DNA from: an archaeon | GTDB taxonomy: Archaea; Asgardarchaeota; Heimdallarchaeia; Heimdallarchaeales; Kariarchaeaceae | Direction: 5' to 3' | NCBI GenBank assembly: GCA_024280435.1 | Contig: JAJRQD010000151.1 | Span: 1-12,082 of the forward strand | Length of the DNA stretch: 12,082 bases | In this document: positions 1 to 9,880 of the stretch, one piece after another | Numbering within the stretch: position 1 is the stretch's first letter | How the letters are laid out: every line of letters starts with the position of its first letter | Made by a program: the position numbers and the translations under genes | The notes under the pieces: model-generated | Databases searched by the model: none | What the model saw: only the letters and a program-made list of their open reading frames with translations | Told to the model about the DNA's origin: nothing

Positions 1-144
1 GTGGTTTATGATCAGGCTGGAGCTATTGGAAAGAGATATGCAAGAAATGATGAGGTTGGGATACTCTATGCCGTCACAGTGGATTACGATACATTAGAAT
101 CTGAGACTGTGACACTGAGAGATAGAGATACCACTGAACAGTAA
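1..144 (+). CDS. glyS: Glycine--tRNA ligase (eukaryote/archaeal alpha2-type), C-terminal anticodon-binding domain; 5'-partial, continues upstream of the window
   Basis: Frame 1 translates to [47 protein letters not shown], with the stop at 142-144. This matches the conserved GlyRS C-terminal 'IGRRYARTDEIG...TVDFDT...T(L/V)RDRDS' signature. The ORF runs off the 5' edge. Confidence 0.7.
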
Positions 145-306
145 GACTTCACAAGGAGGCACTACCCACAATTCTTCAGGAATTGATCATGCAGGTATCT
201 AATTGGAATGATATCAAAGAGGAATTTGGATTAATTCAGGATAATAAACCAGCTAAATCAAAAACCAAGAAAAAAGGTAACAGTAAATAGTGAATTTAGA
301 AAGCCT

Positions 307-358
307 AGAGGTGTAACCTCTTATAATATATAATTTAAAGTGAATTTATAAAAACAAA
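307..358 (-). terminator. Possible terminator region after TatD: an oligo-T tract plus a 6-bp-stem hairpin, potentially bidirectional with the + strand glyS transcript
   Basis: On the - strand, immediately after the TatD stop (359-361), comes 'TTTGTTTTTATAAATTCAC...'. Archaeal termination is typically at oligo-dT runs. A hairpin 'agaggt-gta-acctct' lies at 307-321. Confidence 0.3.
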
Positions 359-1123
359 TTATATTCTGTAGAAGTTTTTGGTATTATTAGTGGTTATTCT
401 GGCAAGCTCTTCCAATTCCACCTCGAATATACTCGCTAATTTTTCAGCTACAATAGGAATGGTTGAGGGTGTATTTGGTCTGATATCATCTGCTGGTGCA
501 CAGTATGGACTATCCGTCTCGAGTAATATATTCTCGATACCTGCGCGAACAGCTACTTTTCTTCTATTTCTTCTGATAACCACATTTGTGGGCACTGTAA
601 TCTTGTATTCCAGTTCTTTGGCAAATTCAACTGCTTTTAGATTCCCCTCAAATGAATGTAGAAGTACAGGTACTTGTGCATGTTTTGATAGAATTTCAAG
701 TGCATCCATCTCTGCCTTTCTTGAGTGAATAACCAATGGTATCTGTTGTTCATTGGCCAATTCAATACAATCAATAAACAATACTTTCTGTCTATCTCTC
801 AGGTTCTCATCTTTTATCCAGTGATAATCTAGGCCTACCTCTCCTATTGCACGGATATTTTTTGATAATGGATTATCACTCAGTTCTCGTATAGGATCTG
901 CATTGATTATTCTATCTGCAAGAGTTGGCTGTAATCCAATTGATATCTCGATTTCATCGAATTTAGAGGTTTCTAGACAATTATTGAATTGAGAAGGATC
1001 ACTGGCACAATTAACTATTTTGATTACATCTTTTGATAAAGCATCTGTGATAACATTTTTTACCTCATTTAATTTGAAAAAAGGTTCTAATATATGTGCA
1101 TGTGCATCTATATACCTGATCAA
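359..1123 (-). CDS. tatD: TatD-family metal-dependent hydrolase / DNase
   Basis: 254 aa. The hallmark TatD motifs are present: N-terminal 'IDAHAHI' (HxH metal site), 'IGEVGLDYH', 'PLVIHSRKA', 'LLHSFEG' and 'LETDSPYCAP'. The start codon on the - strand is TTG (1123-1121), 10 bp after the GTPase stop. Confidence 0.85.
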   Translation of the reverse strand: MIRYIDAHAHILEPFFKLNEVKNVITDALSKDVIKIVNCASDPSQFNNCLETSKFDEIEISIGLQPTLADRIINADPIRELSDNPLSKNIRAIGEVGLDYHWIKDENLRDRQKVLFIDCIELANEQQIPLVIHSRKAEMDALEILSKHAQVPVLLHSFEGNLKAVEFAKELEYKITVPTNVVIRRNRRKVAVRAGIENILLETDSPYCAPADDIRPNTPSTIPIVAEKLASIFEVELEELARITTNNTKNFYRI

Positions 1124-1132
1124 TTTAAAAAC

Positions 1133-1756
1133 CTAAACATCTAGCCATTTCAGGATCTCATTTCCAAGTGATTCAAAAGCCATCTCTATATTCAATCCTG
1201 TAAGTGCTGAAGTATTGTAATAATGTATTTTGAATCGATTATCTCCATACTTCTCTCTTAATATATCGAGTTTTCTCTCTATCTCCTCATCATTCACAAC
1301 TAGATCTGCACCTTCTACAAGATCAAATTTATTACCAAGCAGAATTATTGGAACAATACCTTTTCCAGAATATTTTTTCAATTCCTCTAACCAGTTATCA
1401 ATATTTTCAAAAGAAGTGGGTCTTGTTTTGTCAAAAACAACAACTCCTCCAAAACAACCTTTGTAATACATGGAGCGTACATTATGGAAACTATCCTGTC
1501 CAGCTAGATCCCATATCTGCCATGTGATCTTGTAATCTTTCTCATCAATCTTTATGGATGCATCATGTGCTGCGAAATCAGCTCCAATAGTCATTAAATG
1601 GTCACCGGTAAATCCCTGACCCATATAATTTCTACGAATAGATGTCTTGCCCACTGCACCATCGCCTAATAGTGCAATTTTAAGAAAATATGAATTATTT
1701 GTGATCTTAGGTTTGATTTTTGGCTTACTTTTTGATTGCTTTTTCTTCCAAAACAT
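1133..1756 (-). CDS. Ras-superfamily small GTPase, Rab-like, with an N-terminal polybasic extension
   Basis: 207 aa. G1 'GDGAVGKTS', switch I 'TIGADF' (Rab-like TIGxDF), G3 'WDLAGQD', 'YYKGCFGGVVVFD' (Rab YYRGA-like), G4 'GNKFDL' (NKxD) and G5 'TSALTG' are all present. The N-terminal 23 aa 'MFWKKKQSKSKPKIKPKITNN' is polybasic. There is no C-terminal Cys/CaaX. ATG start at 1756-1754. Confidence 0.85.
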   Translation of the reverse strand: MFWKKKQSKSKPKIKPKITNNSYFLKIALLGDGAVGKTSIRRNYMGQGFTGDHLMTIGADFAAHDASIKIDEKDYKITWQIWDLAGQDSFHNVRSMYYKGCFGGVVVFDKTRPTSFENIDNWLEELKKYSGKGIVPIILLGNKFDLVEGADLVVNDEEIERKLDILREKYGDNRFKIHYYNTSALTGLNIEMAFESLGNEILKWLDV

Positions 1757-1860
1757 TCTATATTCATAACAATCCCTTAATATAATATAAATTATGTGGT
1801 TTGATTTGTTAAAGATAAGAATAATTTGGAATTTCTACATTTATAATTCTAACATTATCC

Positions 1861-1980: not shown

Positions 1981-2445
1981 TTAAGTGTGATCAGTCACTA
2001 TATACTTCAATACATTATTAATAGCGCTATCAAAAGTTGGATCTATCTGCAGTGCTTTTTCAAAATAAATTCTAGCAGTATCTATCTCTTTTTTATCCAC
2101 TGAAATCAATCCTAGCTGATTGAATACAAATTTATTCACCACAGGATGATTTTTTATCTTATCAAATTCATTTATTGCTTTTTCTAGATTATTTGTTAAT
2201 TTGTAAATCAAAGCTTTATCATATAGTGCATAGATATACTCTGGATTGATACTCAGTACCTCATCAAGTGCAATGATCGCAAGATCATATTGTTCAATTT
2301 TTCTCAGAATAAATGCCTTACCATAAATCATATCTATATTTTCAGGATATATTCCAAGGGCTTCCCTATACAACTTCAATGCCTCATCTATCTTCCCATT
2401 CATGATAAGTTTTGCACTCTCATTGATATAATCCTGTTCATTCAT
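1981..2445 (-). CDS. Tetratricopeptide-repeat (TPR) protein
   Basis: 154 aa. It contains tandem ~34-aa repeats with the TPR-like pattern of small/aromatic residues (e.g. 'ALKLYREALGIYPENIDMIYGKAFIL', 'AIIALDEVLSINPEYIYALYDKALIY', 'ARIYFEKALQIDPTFDSAINN'). ATG start at 2445. Confidence 0.75.
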   Translation of the reverse strand: MNEQDYINESAKLIMNGKIDEALKLYREALGIYPENIDMIYGKAFILRKIEQYDLAIIALDEVLSINPEYIYALYDKALIYKLTNNLEKAINEFDKIKNHPVVNKFVFNQLGLISVDKKEIDTARIYFEKALQIDPTFDSAINNVLKYIVTDHT

Positions 2446-5204: not shown

Positions 5205-5756
5205 ATGACAAATGTCTATTGTTCAGAATGTGGGACTTCAAATGATGAGAATGCAGGTTTCTGTGGAAATTGTGGTACTAAAATTGAAGCACCAAAGACT
5301 CAGATAAATTCTACTGTACCTGCTAAAGCACCATCTAAGCAGGGTTATCAGCAACCACAGGGTTATCAGCAACCACAGGGTTATCAGCAACCACAGCAGG
5401 GTTATCAGCAACCACAGCAGGGTTATCAACAACCACAGCAGGGTTATCAACAACCACAGCAGGGTTATGTGCAACCTGGTTATGTACAACCAGGATTTCA
5501 ACAACCTATGGGTAGACCTGGAATACCGGGATATCAGATACCAAGGAAAGATCCCTCAGTTGGCTATATTGGGGCACTATTTATCCCTGGATTTGCACAT
5601 TTTTATACTGATAATGTTGGCACTGGAATTGTCTTATTATTGATAACTATTTTCACATATGCGATTGTAATTGGATTGATTATTCATTTTGTTCAATTTT
5701 TAATGGCCGGAGATCGAGTAAAATATTACAATAGATTGAATGGCTATCCACAATAA
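5205..5756 (+). CDS. Zinc-ribbon / Q-Y-P-rich low-complexity linker / C-terminal TM2-domain (two-TM) protein
   Basis: 183 aa. The N-terminus 'CSECG...CGNCG' is a C4 zinc ribbon. The middle is (QGYQQPQ)n with about 9 repeats. The C-terminus 'GALFIPGFAHFYTDNVGTGIVLLLITIF...IVIGLIIHFVQFLMAGDRV' matches the TM2-domain pattern (G-x-H-x-FY...G-I-L-LL, a second TM helix, then a conserved D). Confidence 0.65.
   Translation: MTNVYCSECGTSNDENAGFCGNCGTKIEAPKTQINSTVPAKAPSKQGYQQPQGYQQPQGYQQPQQGYQQPQQGYQQPQQGYQQPQQGYVQPGYVQPGFQQPMGRPGIPGYQIPRKDPSVGYIGALFIPGFAHFYTDNVGTGIVLLLITIFTYAIVIGLIIHFVQFLMAGDRVKYYNRLNGYPQ
5341..5505 (+). repeat. In-frame 18/21-bp coding tandem repeat encoding (Q)QGYQQP
   Basis: 'cagggttatcagcaacca' occurs 3 times, then 'cagcagggttatca(g/a)caacca' 4 times, followed by degenerate 'ggttatgt(g/a)caacc' units. 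The - strand ORF at 5238-5504 ('LLITLLWLL...') is the mirror artifact of this repeat. Confidence 0.9.
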
Positions 5757-5825: not shown

Positions 5826-6476
5826 TTAGACATTATTAATAAAATACCTCATCTGTCTGATACTTGTTGGAAATAGTCTGCCTACATTTCTCTGATATTC
5901 CTTATATGTATCAAAAAACTCAGCTAATTTCTTTTCCTCATAGTATGTACCAATGAGAAAATAACCACCTGCTCCAATTATCCATGATAATGAATTTTCA
6001 GAGACCTCTACAAATAATGTGGCTATAAATATAATTATTGCTCCGAGATATACTGGATGTCTTGAGAAAGAATATATGCCAGAGGTATTCAGTGGTTCCT
6101 CTTCTTTGGTTATGCCAATAAATCCAAGTAAATCCCATTTCAATAATCCCAATATTGCAATAATAGTGCCTATTACTAGCCCTGTTAAGAAAAATATCAG
6201 ATATATTCCCTCTAATCTCAGTCCTTTTACTATCAGATCTCCAATCCCCGGTACATTGTAAGAGGTTACCATGAATGTAATTATTGCAATAATATTGTAT
6301 AAAACTCTGTATGTTTTCGCTCCAATCGGGATTCTATTCTTTATTGAAATAGATGTGGTGAGTGAATGAATGATACCAAAAAAGCCCCACCATAAAATAT
6401 ACATGATCAATAATGCCCAGTTCATATATATTAGATCAAAGATAAAAACATAAAGTTTGTTATGATTGAAATTCAA
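5826..6476 (-). CDS. Isoprenylcysteine carboxyl methyltransferase (ICMT)/phospholipid methyltransferase-family integral membrane methyltransferase
   Basis: The C-terminal signature is 'SRHPVYLGAIIIF...GTYYEEKKLAEFFDTYKEYQRNVGRLFP', matching the ICMT-family RHPxY...EE..L..FG..Y..Y...V.R..P motif, within a 5-6 TM helix protein. The ORF-track start at 6476 is TTG. The more likely true start is the in-frame ATG at 6425 ('MNWALLIMYILWW...', about 199 aa). Confidence 0.75.
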   Translation of the reverse strand: MNFNHNKLYVFIFDLIYMNWALLIMYILWWGFFGIIHSLTTSISIKNRIPIGAKTYRVLYNIIAIITFMVTSYNVPGIGDLIVKGLRLEGIYLIFFLTGLVIGTIIAILGLLKWDLLGFIGITKEEEPLNTSGIYSFSRHPVYLGAIIIFIATLFVEVSENSLSWIIGAGGYFLIGTYYEEKKLAEFFDTYKEYQRNVGRLFPTSIRQMRYFINNV

Positions 6477-7858: not shown

Positions 7859-9880
7859 TTAATTTTTTATATCTGAGATGCCTTGATGTGCATAATAAGT
7901 ATTGTACAGTTCAAAATACTTACCTTTTAATCTCATCAATTCATCATGAGTGCCCTGTTCTACAATTGAGCCATCATCCATCACAATTATCTGATCTACA
8001 TCTCTAATAGTGGATAATCTGTGTGCAATAATCACAGTAGTTCTGCCCTCAAATAATTTATTCTGGGCTTCCTGTACAAGGCTCTCCGTGAATGCATCCA
8101 ACCTGCTTGTGGCCTCATCTAGAATAAGTATCTTGGGATCACGTATCATAGTTCTTGCAATAGTTATCATCTGCCTCTGACCTGCCGATAATGATTTACC
8201 CGATTCTATCAATTTAGTCTCATATCCATCTGGTAGTGCCTCTATAAACTGATCTGCACCAAGCATCTCACATATTTTGTATACCTGCTCATCAGATACA
8301 TCTTGATTACCATATTTGATATTATCAACCACAGAGCCAACAAAAAGATAAGGTTCCTGCGATACAAGGCTAATTGTATCATACAGTGATTCAAGTGTTA
8401 TTTCTCTCAAATCCTGCCCATCAATCATGATGGAGCCATCCTTTGGATCATAGAAACGTAATAATAGTTTTGTGATGGTGGTTTTACCTGCTCCTGTATG
8501 TCCAACTATGGCTGTCTTTTTTCCTGCAGGAATAGTGAATGATACATTTTTCAATACAATCGTTTCATTTCTATCTTCAGAATTACCCATCATCCTAGCT
8601 TTCATATTAGCTTTCATCTTAGCTTGCATCTCTGCTTGCATCTTAGCTTTCATCTCTGCTTTCATCTTAGCGTCCATATCAGGCTTCATATTAGCTTTCA
8701 TCTTAGCTTGCATCTCTGCTTGCATCTTAGCATTCATCTTACCCCTCATATCAGGCTTCACTGCACCATTCATTCTCTTTTTACCACTATAAGCAAATGA
8801 TATATTATCCACCTGTATCTCTCCTTCTGAGAATCCAAGAGGCCTTGCATCAGGACTATTTTTCACAGAGGGCCGAGATTCAAGTACATCTGTAACTCTA
8901 TCAAGAGCTGCCAATGATGCCTGGAAATTAGTTATATTATTTGATAATGCCATTATTGGAGATAAGAACCTTCTAACCATAATTGTACCCAGATAAATTG
9001 CACCCAATGTGATTATCCCCGCCTCATTAAGATAACCACCTACAAGTAATACACCCATTATCATGAGCATACTCACAAGCGTAATTGATGGAAAAATCAT
9101 AGTGAACAGAAAGCCCAATTGTTTGAAATAGCCAAAAGTTTCATCATTCAGCTTTCTGATCTCCTCACTGGTTCTATCTTCTTGATTGAATGATTTGGCA
9201 ATTGCCACCCCATTAAGATTCTCTGCTAACTTACCCGATACCTTGCCCATAGATGATCTTACCTCCAACATCTTCTGTTTACCTCTAGATGCAATTATCT
9301 TTGTAATTCCAAATGCAGTTGGCAATGCTAACAATGAGATCAAGCCAAACCATATGGAGATAGAAAATAATACTATCAATGTAGTCAGAGCAACCAATAG
9401 ATTCGTCAGCGTAGTGGTAAACACTGCAAGCCCATTGGTAATCTCCTGTGTATCACCAATCACTCTTGAAGTAACATCTCCTGATTGATTTGTGGCATGA
9501 TAATTCATATCTGCTTTTACTAGTCCCTCAAAAGTGGCTGTTCTTAATGAATGCACCAGCCTATTGGATACAATACTCATAAACCACGTATTTGCTGATT
9601 GAGCCATCCATGATAATATAGATAGTGCAAAATATATGATTACAAGTGTTGTTATCGCATCAAATTTATCTCCAACTAGTAACTGATCTATTGCTTTCTC
9701 AACTATCAATGGCTGTGCTGTAACTGCTGCTGTGTAGAACAGAGTTAACAATGCAATCAGAATAAGATAGCCTGTAAATGGCTTCAAGTATTGCCATAGT
9801 ATTTTTAACAGTATTTTGAAAGACCGGGTACGTTTATTATCCGAAAGCATACTGGAATGTCTGCTACCAGGTCTACTCAT
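7859..9880 (-). CDS. ABC exporter half-transporter (TMD-NBD, type IV/ABCB-like) with a canonical ATPase site, carrying a Met/Lys-rich repeat insertion in the NBD
   Basis: 673 aa with an N-terminal 6-TM domain. Walker A 'GHTGAGKTT', Q-loop 'SQEP', Walker B+E 'ILILDEATSRLD' and H-loop 'IIAHRLSTI' are canonical. The signature is divergent ('LSAGQRQMITIARTM'). About 65 extra residues lie between NBD strands beta1 and beta2, including (KAKM)-type tetrapeptide repeats. The ATG start overlaps the stop of the upstream ABC gene (ATGA at 9877-9880), and a GGAGGA Shine-Dalgarno sits 8 nt upstream. Confidence 0.85.
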   Translation of the reverse strand: MSRPGSRHSSMLSDNKRTRSFKILLKILWQYLKPFTGYLILIALLTLFYTAAVTAQPLIVEKAIDQLLVGDKFDAITTLVIIYFALSILSWMAQSANTWFMSIVSNRLVHSLRTATFEGLVKADMNYHATNQSGDVTSRVIGDTQEITNGLAVFTTTLTNLLVALTTLIVLFSISIWFGLISLLALPTAFGITKIIASRGKQKMLEVRSSMGKVSGKLAENLNGVAIAKSFNQEDRTSEEIRKLNDETFGYFKQLGFLFTMIFPSITLVSMLMIMGVLLVGGYLNEAGIITLGAIYLGTIMVRRFLSPIMALSNNITNFQASLAALDRVTDVLESRPSVKNSPDARPLGFSEGEIQVDNISFAYSGKKRMNGAVKPDMRGKMNAKMQAEMQAKMKANMKPDMDAKMKAEMKAKMQAEMQAKMKANMKARMMGNSEDRNETIVLKNVSFTIPAGKKTAIVGHTGAGKTTITKLLLRFYDPKDGSIMIDGQDLREITLESLYDTISLVSQEPYLFVGSVVDNIKYGNQDVSDEQVYKICEMLGADQFIEALPDGYETKLIESGKSLSAGQRQMITIARTMIRDPKILILDEATSRLDAFTESLVQEAQNKLFEGRTTVIIAHRLSTIRDVDQIIVMDDGSIVEQGTHDELMRLKGKYFELYNTYYAHQGISDIKN
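8575..8770 (-). repeat. In-frame 12-bp coding minisatellite (14 units, + strand 'cat-ytt-agc-ttt' = KAKM on the coding strand), with an 84-bp higher-order duplication
   Basis: Read on the + strand, the units are 'catcctagcttt catattagcttt catcttagcttg catctctgcttg catcttagcttt catctctgcttt catcttagcgtc catatcaggctt catattagcttt catcttagcttg catctctgcttg catcttagcatt catcttacccct catatcaggctt'. Units 2-4 equal units 9-11 exactly. The encoded peptide is 'MRGKMNAKMQAEMQAKMKANMKPDMDAKMKAEMKAKMQAEMQAKMKANMKARMM'. Confidence 0.9.

Follow-up and report, generated by a model that had tools for sequence, protein, structure and literature searches.

The window analysed here, a stretch of 12,082 nucleotides (contig JAJRQD010000151.1), carries on its minus strand a gene for a Rab-like small GTPase (positions 1133 to 1756) that is directly followed by a gene for a TatD-family hydrolase (359 to 1123). 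We lean towards reading this pair as a housekeeping operon of a Kariarchaeales archaeon, specific to that lineage and passed on by vertical descent. Both genes are ordinary members of known families, their association is a previously undescribed gene neighbourhood at the level of one order, and nothing indicates that the GTPase controls the nuclease. The nearest homologues of both proteins are annotated as Heimdallarchaeota, Kariarchaeaceae or Kariarchaeum pelagius, and the source of the window is a Heimdall-group Asgard archaeon of Kariarchaeaceae type, a family that the NCBI taxonomy assigns to the order Kariarchaeales within the Asgard kingdom. Relatives of Kariarchaeum pelagius are present in TARA marine samples. 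A preliminary description of this DNA had already recognised the Rab-like GTPase and a complete TatD protein; both genes lie where it had placed them, and all the motifs that it quoted are present.

The GTPase, the TatD hydrolase and their junction

The GTPase (207 residues, ATG start) matched the Pfam family Ras at 9.3e-38 (129.8 bits against a cutoff of 21.6) and Roc at 1.9e-29. Its motifs comprise GDGAVGKT at residues 31-38, TIGADF at 56-61, WDLAGQD at 82-88, YYKG at 97-100, NKFD at 142-145 and TSA at 182-184. In an alignment of 32 orthologues, the motifs quoted in the preliminary description are invariant or nearly so, with GDGAVGKT (31-38), T56, D83 to Q87, N142-K143-x-D145 and T182-S183-A184 unchanged throughout, as expected of G1 to G5 in a member of the Ras superfamily. 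The best sequence match in the PDB was the Thorarchaeota Rab 7ezb (6e-31), followed by Rab11, Rab1 and Rab7. Structure prediction agreed with this placement: when the AlphaFold2 model (mean predicted local distance difference test, pLDDT, 81.9; below 50 for residues 1-18 and of low confidence in switch I) was compared with the PDB by Foldseek, the top 50 matches were all Rab/Ypt-family structures, with template modelling (TM) scores to the target of 0.68-0.82 and Rab27, Rab1 and Rab8 as the best.

The protein begins with a disordered polybasic extension, MFWKKKQSKSKPKIKPK. This tail had been singled out as unusual; it is real but not peculiar to this genome, since most orthologues start with MFWKKK and the extension is conserved. 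Cysteine motifs of the CC, CxC or CAAX type are found at the C-terminus of none of the 32 aligned orthologues, the window protein ending in GNEILKWLDV, and for want of such a cysteine the GTPase is to be called Rab-like and not a bona fide eukaryotic Rab. Its aromatic and polybasic N-terminus would then substitute as a membrane tether. As a separate observation, the same genome, with its Rab-like GTPase that has no prenylatable cysteine, encodes an ICMT/PEMT-family membrane methyltransferase (isoprenylcysteine carboxyl methyltransferase-like by Pfam; window positions 5826-6476, minus strand).

The Thorarchaeota Rab 7EZB and other Asgard Rab-like GTPases (PMC10933270) resemble the window protein in their Rab-type fold (known for the window protein from the model), intact G1-G5 and RabF-like IGADF, QIWDLAGQ and YYKG segments, and likewise form part of a large paralogous expansion in Asgard genomes. 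What sets the window orthogroup apart is the conserved MFWKKK polybasic N-extension of ~20 residues, the missing C-terminal cysteine and, compared with the MK-D1 GTPases of the same study, its place in a conserved operon or neighbourhood. Several related loci have further Ras-like GTPase paralogues a few kilobases from the pair (from 12465 in L001, 11298-11942 in L007, 3441-3980 in L014, 4053-4592 in L031 and 2999-3481 in L173; L numbers are our designations of related loci). Ras-like genes are thus dense in this clade, so that adjacency in a single genome could easily arise by chance.

The TatD protein (254 residues) covered positions 1-252 of the 253 in the Pfam profile TatD_DNase (4.7e-53, 180.6 bits). 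Its catalytic set, H8xH10, E95, H133, H156 and D204, corresponds to the class II ligands as defined in PMC10085689; among 31 orthologues, H8 and H10 are conserved in at least 90% and the remaining four residues are invariant. The nearest relatives of solved structure in the PDB are the S. aureus enzyme, E. coli YcfH and human TATDN3, and the AlphaFold2 model (pLDDT 97.3), a bare TIM barrel with no extra domain, gave TM scores of 0.88-0.91 to TATDN3 (2y1h), 0.87 to the S. aureus protein (6l25) and 0.89 to E. coli YcfH (1yix). With the class II TatD proteins (E. coli YcfH and YjjV, S. aureus SAV0491 and human TATDN3; PMC10085689, PMC7201278) it therefore has in common the HxH motif, the complete metal ligands and a barrel with no additions, but it is only ~25-28% identical to them and remains below the NCBIfam cutoffs for TIGR00010 (169.8 versus 206) and for the YcfH equivalog (97.2 versus 438). 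It is a member of the family by Pfam and not an equivalog of any named bacterial enzyme. Class II TatDs act as 3'-exonucleases and apurinic/apyrimidinic (AP) endonucleases in the repair of oxidative damage, YcfH and TATDN3 being robust in both activities (PMC10085689). E. coli ycfH, too, closes an operon of mixed housekeeping genes, mltG-tmk-holB-ycfH, in which it lies 10 nt downstream of holB. For a Rab-like GTPase as operon partner of a class II TatD we found no precedent; the literature searched held no mention of TatD together with Asgard GTPases and no report of the pairing, which bears out the earlier impression that it had not been described.

Between the two genes the sequence reads TAG-GTTTTTAAA-TTG, a spacer of 9 nt on the minus strand (1124 to 1132) running from the GTPase stop to the TatD start. 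The tight same-strand arrangement reported earlier is therefore correct, while its stated spacing of 10 bp is not: the spacer, read directly, is 1132..1124. Counting from the upstream stop, no start codon occurs earlier than this TTG, and the next methionine comes far past the essential HxH motif, which leaves the TTG as the only usable TatD start, as had been proposed. A TATA-box-like element, TTTATATT, can be read at 1784 to 1791 (minus strand), 28-35 nt upstream of the GTPase ATG, and no comparable element occurs in the 40 nt before the TatD start. Judged from its sequence and position, TTTATATT is a candidate archaeal operon promoter that would imply a near-leaderless transcript. Three features together argue for co-transcription and possibly for coupled translation, in line with the two-gene operon that the preliminary description had put forward: the spacer is 9 nt long, TatD has no TATA-like box ahead of it, and orthologous loci show ATGA or TAA-GTG junctions. 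The same-strand order with a short or overlapping junction recurs in eight other loci, with gaps of -4 to +64 nt.

The two open reading frames (ORFs) share a reading frame, with TAG and three codons between them, and read-through of the TAG would give a protein of 465 residues. We rejected a read-through fusion because the frame is shared in L001, L012 and L174 and not in L007, L008, L014, L171 and L172, in keeping with the chance expectation of 1/3. No GTPase-TatD fusion was present among the 240 homologues listed (156-312 residues).

Directly after the TatD stop lies an oligo-T tract, TTTGTTTTTAT (358..348, minus strand), a putative archaeal terminator. It falls within the intergenic region (291 to 358, as read from the sequence) between the end of TatD and the corrected end of a convergent glycyl-tRNA synthetase (GlyRS) gene, as does a 6-bp hairpin, AGAGGT-GTA-ACCTCT, at 307-321, 3' of TatD. 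A scan returned no bacterial terminators, and fewer sigma-70 promoter-like sites than shuffled sequences did; being of bacterial type, it is uninformative for an archaeon. Upstream of the GTPase, an AT-rich region 105-137 nt from the start codon contains a perfect 15-nt tandem repeat in 2.2 copies, ATATAGAAAATATGT (1861-1893), which may be a regulator-binding site.

Conservation of the neighbourhood

Within the clade we compared 17 distinct loci with GTPase orthologues at 53-72% identity. The GTPase gene is immediately followed by TatD on the same strand in nine of them: the window (9 nt), L001 (0 nt, TAA then GTG), L007 and L014 (ATGA overlap), L172 (7 nt), L174 (24 nt), L008 (41 nt), L171 (64 nt) and L012, where the TatD start is uncertain. 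Six further loci link the two genes in other ways. They are divergent in L002-4 and in L011, where a gene for a zinc-ribbon repeat protein, here called C3, stands between GTPase and TatD; the order is TatD, C3, GTPase in L009 and L010; the genes are adjacent and convergent in L173; and GlyRS separates them in L005/6. Only L013 and L015 have them unlinked, and the L015 GTPase may be a paralogue instead of an orthologue. The pairing is thus not unique to this genome, being conserved as a linkage in 15/17 loci. In the L013 genome, which keeps both genes, TatD stays near GlyRS (L087) and the GTPase stands beside C3.

Similarity among TatD proteins falls with taxonomy, from Kariarchaeaceae through Hodarchaeales to the Hermod, Odin, Prometh and Thor lineages, and on this gradient the gene looks vertically inherited across Asgard lineages. 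One TatD labelled 'Kariarchaeaceae' (P0197, 37% identity) fell outside the clade in a neighbour-joining tree, an observation that bears on whether the TatD of the clade might be a lineage-specific paralogue. In a neighbour-joining, hence distance-based, tree of TatD, rooted on Hodarchaeales and of modest support, L014 with its adjacent arrangement forms the earliest branch, and a crown group has the arrangement too. GlyRS continues on the same strand after TatD in L007, L008 and L174, and in L014 with one gene inserted. Since the earliest branch and a crown group are alike, GTPase followed by TatD and GlyRS is the parsimonious ancestral state, and the likely ancestral order has C3 divergent from a GTPase-TatD-GlyRS series.

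The linkage of TatD with GlyRS, seen in most loci of the clade, raises a different explanation, namely that TatD is primarily linked to translation, for instance as a YcfH/DTD3-like D-aminoacyl-tRNA deacylase or an RNA 3'-end hydrolase, with GlyRS as its partner and the GTPase merely heading the transcript. TatD and GlyRS are adjacent and co-directional in L002-4, L005/6, L007, L008 and L174; the L013 genome keeps the two linked with the GTPase elsewhere, and L173 does so via an enolase gene; and genes for SUI1 and an M24 peptidase (methionine-aminopeptidase family) lie nearby in relatives. Glycine is achiral, however, which makes a D-aminoacyl rationale for GlyRS weak, and Asgard TatD genes outside Kariarchaeales do not stand beside GlyRS. 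As for biochemistry, the window protein is of class II (HxH) and nearest to YcfH and TATDN3, and hydrolysis of D-aminoacyl-tRNA has been reported for both the Synechocystis dtd3 product and YcfH, but not for E. coli TatD (Wydau et al. 2009, cited in PMC10711561). DTD3 and YcfH belong with the window protein to the class II TatD subfamily, and the window gene is linked to a tRNA synthetase gene. YcfH and TATDN3, on the other hand, are also the robust 3'-exonucleases and AP endonucleases described above (PMC10085689). We hold a primarily translational role to be unlikely. Even so, TatD is linked to GlyRS at least as conservedly as to the GTPase, and the label 'nuclease' is to be held loosely.

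C3 (2668 to 3357 in the window, plus strand; no Pfam hit) combines an N-terminal zinc ribbon, MKCxxCxxxFVRxPCPxCG, with a probably disordered region of ~2 to 10 repeats of a short motif of the [ER]L[VLR][KR]PSE[MLVI] type ([LV][KR]PS[EQ][LMIV]) and a conserved C-terminal helix, YKxRVKDTLxEVISLLEKLIE. Its relatives lie beside or near the GTPase gene in 12 loci of the clade (among them L001, L005, L007, L009-L011, L013, L014/L031, L171, L172 and L174), usually divergent from it, and in none of the paralogue loci. C3 remains by the GTPase in L013, where TatD has moved, and by TatD in L005, where the GTPase has moved; in L011 it precedes TatD by 8 nt. Its linkage to the GTPase is as close as that of TatD, and C3 is a candidate adaptor or effector. 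Ras-superfamily switches beside a conserved partner gene are familiar from MglA/MglB and from Asgard Rag-like pairs and roadblock/longin fusions (PMC10933270), but the partners here are an enzyme (TatD), an aminoacyl-tRNA synthetase and a disordered zinc-ribbon repeat protein. Neither the window nor the locus comparisons contained a gene for a roadblock, longin or TBC protein or for any other recognisable GTPase-activating protein or guanine nucleotide exchange factor. A further recurrent neighbour of the GTPase, often directly downstream of it, is C4, a ~480-residue EutA-like ASKHA-fold ATPase with a weak MreB_Mbl hit (L002-L006, L009-L011, L013 and L174), which is not part of the 12-kb window.

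Beyond the clade the association disappears. Around GTPase relatives of at most 50% identity (Hodarchaeales, Heimdallarchaeum, Hermod, Thor and others), a set that includes relatives sharing the basic N-terminal extension, TatD occurred within ~8 kb in 0/65 loci, and C3 or C4 nearby in 0/65. Conversely, GTPase-TatD adjacency is absent from 84 other TatD loci, and among the matches listed, none of the 80 distant metagenome TatD loci (≤40% identity, probably mostly non-Asgard) has a Ras-like neighbour. In a Hodarchaeales metagenome-assembled genome (MAG), a 4.9-Mb Heimdall chromosome and a Promethearchaeota MAG (L088, L089 and L090), TatD lies upstream of an FAD-dependent oxidoreductase gene, with neither GTPase nor GlyRS near it, and this TatD-DAO block is a different conserved TatD operon. 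The oxidoreductase (Pfam DAO and DAO_C) begins ~15-25 nt after TatD, in a block in which ribosomal S25e, an HD-domain YfbR-like gene and S17e are also conserved.

Several points weigh against taking the pair for a housekeeping operon and nothing else. The 17 loci come from MAGs of one order and are not phylogenetically independent. Leaving aside L001, the closest relative, and a thioredoxin-like gene in L002, the recurring members of the neighbourhood are GlyRS, TatD, GTPase and C3 alone, all other genes of the window having been shuffled away. GTPase, TatD and C3 keep to within ~3 kb of one another across at least five different permutations. Retention through rearrangement is a classic sign of functional or physical coupling, and bystander co-transcription alone may therefore undersell the link.

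These observations speak for a functional module, in which the GTPase, probably with C3, recruits or gates TatD, for instance at the membrane, and the genes are kept together by that interaction. GTPase and TatD lie within ~3 kb in 15/17 loci of the clade in five configurations, and are directly adjacent, in three relative orientations, in 11/17; the surrounding genes are not conserved at equal divergence; C3 stays now with TatD (L005), now with the GTPase (L013), and nearly abuts TatD in L011; and the ATGA overlaps suggest coupled, stoichiometric translation. The operon also stands out because Asgard small GTPases have otherwise been reported without partner operons, gene layout being of hardly any help in matching them to partners (PMC10933270). 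Conservation is, however, confined to a single order and of shallow depth. Likely orthologous GTPases with a polybasic N-terminus do without TatD, C3 or C4 nearby in Hodarchaeales; TatD genes of Hodarchaeales, Heimdall and Promethearchaeota members pair with the DAO-family oxidoreductase instead; one genome (that of L013) has unlinked the two genes and yet keeps both; and TatD has no accessory or docking domain, nor were fusions seen among the homologues listed. We regard such a module as a tentative possibility and the lineage-specific housekeeping operon as the better account.

Defence and the remaining genes of the window

The preliminary description had likened the pair to the logic of prokaryotic defence or programmed DNA degradation: the GTPase would sense infection or stress and unleash TatD as an effector nuclease. 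An NTPase together with a nuclease is a common defence architecture. A TatD-family nuclease has, moreover, been co-opted for defence in QatABCD (PMC13434339), and QatD shares the HxH TIM barrel and weak profile similarity with the window TatD. The match is sub-threshold (80.2 bits to the NCBIfam QatD equivalog NF041926, far below its cutoff of 230), and neither the QatA ATPase nor QatB nor the QueC-like QatC was found among the 11 window proteins, which were scanned with Pfam and PADLOC. PADLOC matches to mad3 and mad8 on two ABC exporters were rejected as evidence of defence, as they reflect generic similarity of the ABC-ATPase domain.

The genomic context likewise argues against this interpretation. 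Neighbours in the window are GlyRS, a thioredoxin-like protein, an SPFH protein and ABC exporters; in relatives they include SUI1, the M24 peptidase, RPAB4-type zinc ribbons and enolase. Neither the window nor the annotated gene tables inspected for related loci contained a defence gene, and none of the annotated related loci lies in a defence island, their neighbours being housekeeping or membrane and metabolic genes. TatD looks vertically inherited throughout the lineage, its housekeeping synteny is conserved, its distribution is not patchy or island-like, and the GC content of the window is uniform throughout (28-40%). The supposed effector would, in several genomes, share a transcript with an essential aminoacyl-tRNA synthetase, and the GTPase-TatD order is broken in about half of the clade, which fits poorly with an obligate sensor-effector pair. 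We consider a defence function very improbable indeed. The alternative offered in the preliminary description, a regulated housekeeping nuclease, is conceivable.

The GlyRS 3' end (1 to 290, plus strand), convergent with TatD, shows an apparent 1-nt frameshift within 139-145, near 141-144, where frame 1 stops and frame 3 continues. The frame 3 continuation matches the C-termini of orthologous GlyRS proteins, including that of L001, and the 1-nt indel reflects either a mistake of the assembly or a true frameshift, which would then affect an essential gene. An in-frame stop (TGAI*KRYARN) likewise interrupts the GlyRS gene of L007 (6062-7633, on a MAG contig of low coverage), and indel and stop errors occur frequently in such assemblies.

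Between C3 and the GTPase, a TPR-repeat protein (1981 to 2445, minus strand; Pfam TPR families) has no orthologue at the corresponding position in any related locus; it is specific to the window and outside the conserved cluster. Further along, a zinc-ribbon protein at 5205-5756 (plus strand; ORF and Pfam) repeats QGYQQPQ many times in a long Q/P/Y-rich stretch, which is followed by a transmembrane segment. One of the two ABC exporters (7859-9880, minus strand), whose identity is based on PADLOC similarities and an annotated homologue in a related locus, carries at residues ~365-430 an unusual periodic insert rich in Lys, Met and Ala, KMNAKMQAEMQAKMKANMKPDMDAKMKAEMKAKMQ, directly before its nucleotide-binding domain. 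Membrane proteins also belong to the gene content of the window.

Proposed expression and biological meaning

If the pair is the housekeeping operon that we favour, its expression may be pictured as follows. One transcript would start from the TATA-like box ~30 nt upstream of the GTPase ATG and give rise to a Rab-like GTP switch whose aromatic and polybasic MFWKKK N-terminus, and not C-terminal prenylation, probably holds it at the membrane. TatD, to judge by the spacing, would be translated 9 nt after the GTPase stop from its weak TTG, by re-initiation or coupling, and transcription would end at the oligo-T tract just past the gene. By analogy with its relatives, TatD most likely performs ordinary class II work, that is, 3'-5' exonuclease and AP-endonuclease repair or nucleic-acid turnover; alternatively, and given its GlyRS partner, it could possibly hydrolyse aminoacyl-tRNA in the manner of YcfH/DTD3. 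The GTPase would be an independent membrane switch, with the linkage reflecting shared transcription by descent and not a sensor-effector relation.

It is also conceivable, though in our estimate improbable, that C3 with its LVKPSEL-type repeats, the membrane-tethered Rab-like GTPase and TatD interact physically and constitute a GTP-switched nucleic-acid-hydrolase module specific to Kariarchaeales. To our knowledge, Asgard genomes encode dozens of Rab/Ras-like GTPases each, none with a known cellular role or effector. A GTP-switched module of this kind would, if true, make the window protein the first Rab-like GTPase of Asgard archaea for which an enzymatic effector and an adaptor can be named. 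Should the link be purely transcriptional, the pair is an ordinary lineage-specific operon and the main value of the analysis lies in correcting the defence reading. A 'TatD DNase' encoded beside an aminoacyl-tRNA synthetase may not act as a DNase. An orthogroup of Rab-like GTPases with fixed neighbours (C3, TatD and GlyRS) throughout one order offers an inexpensive handle, of a kind seldom available, on this protein family, and it puts a name to two candidate partners.

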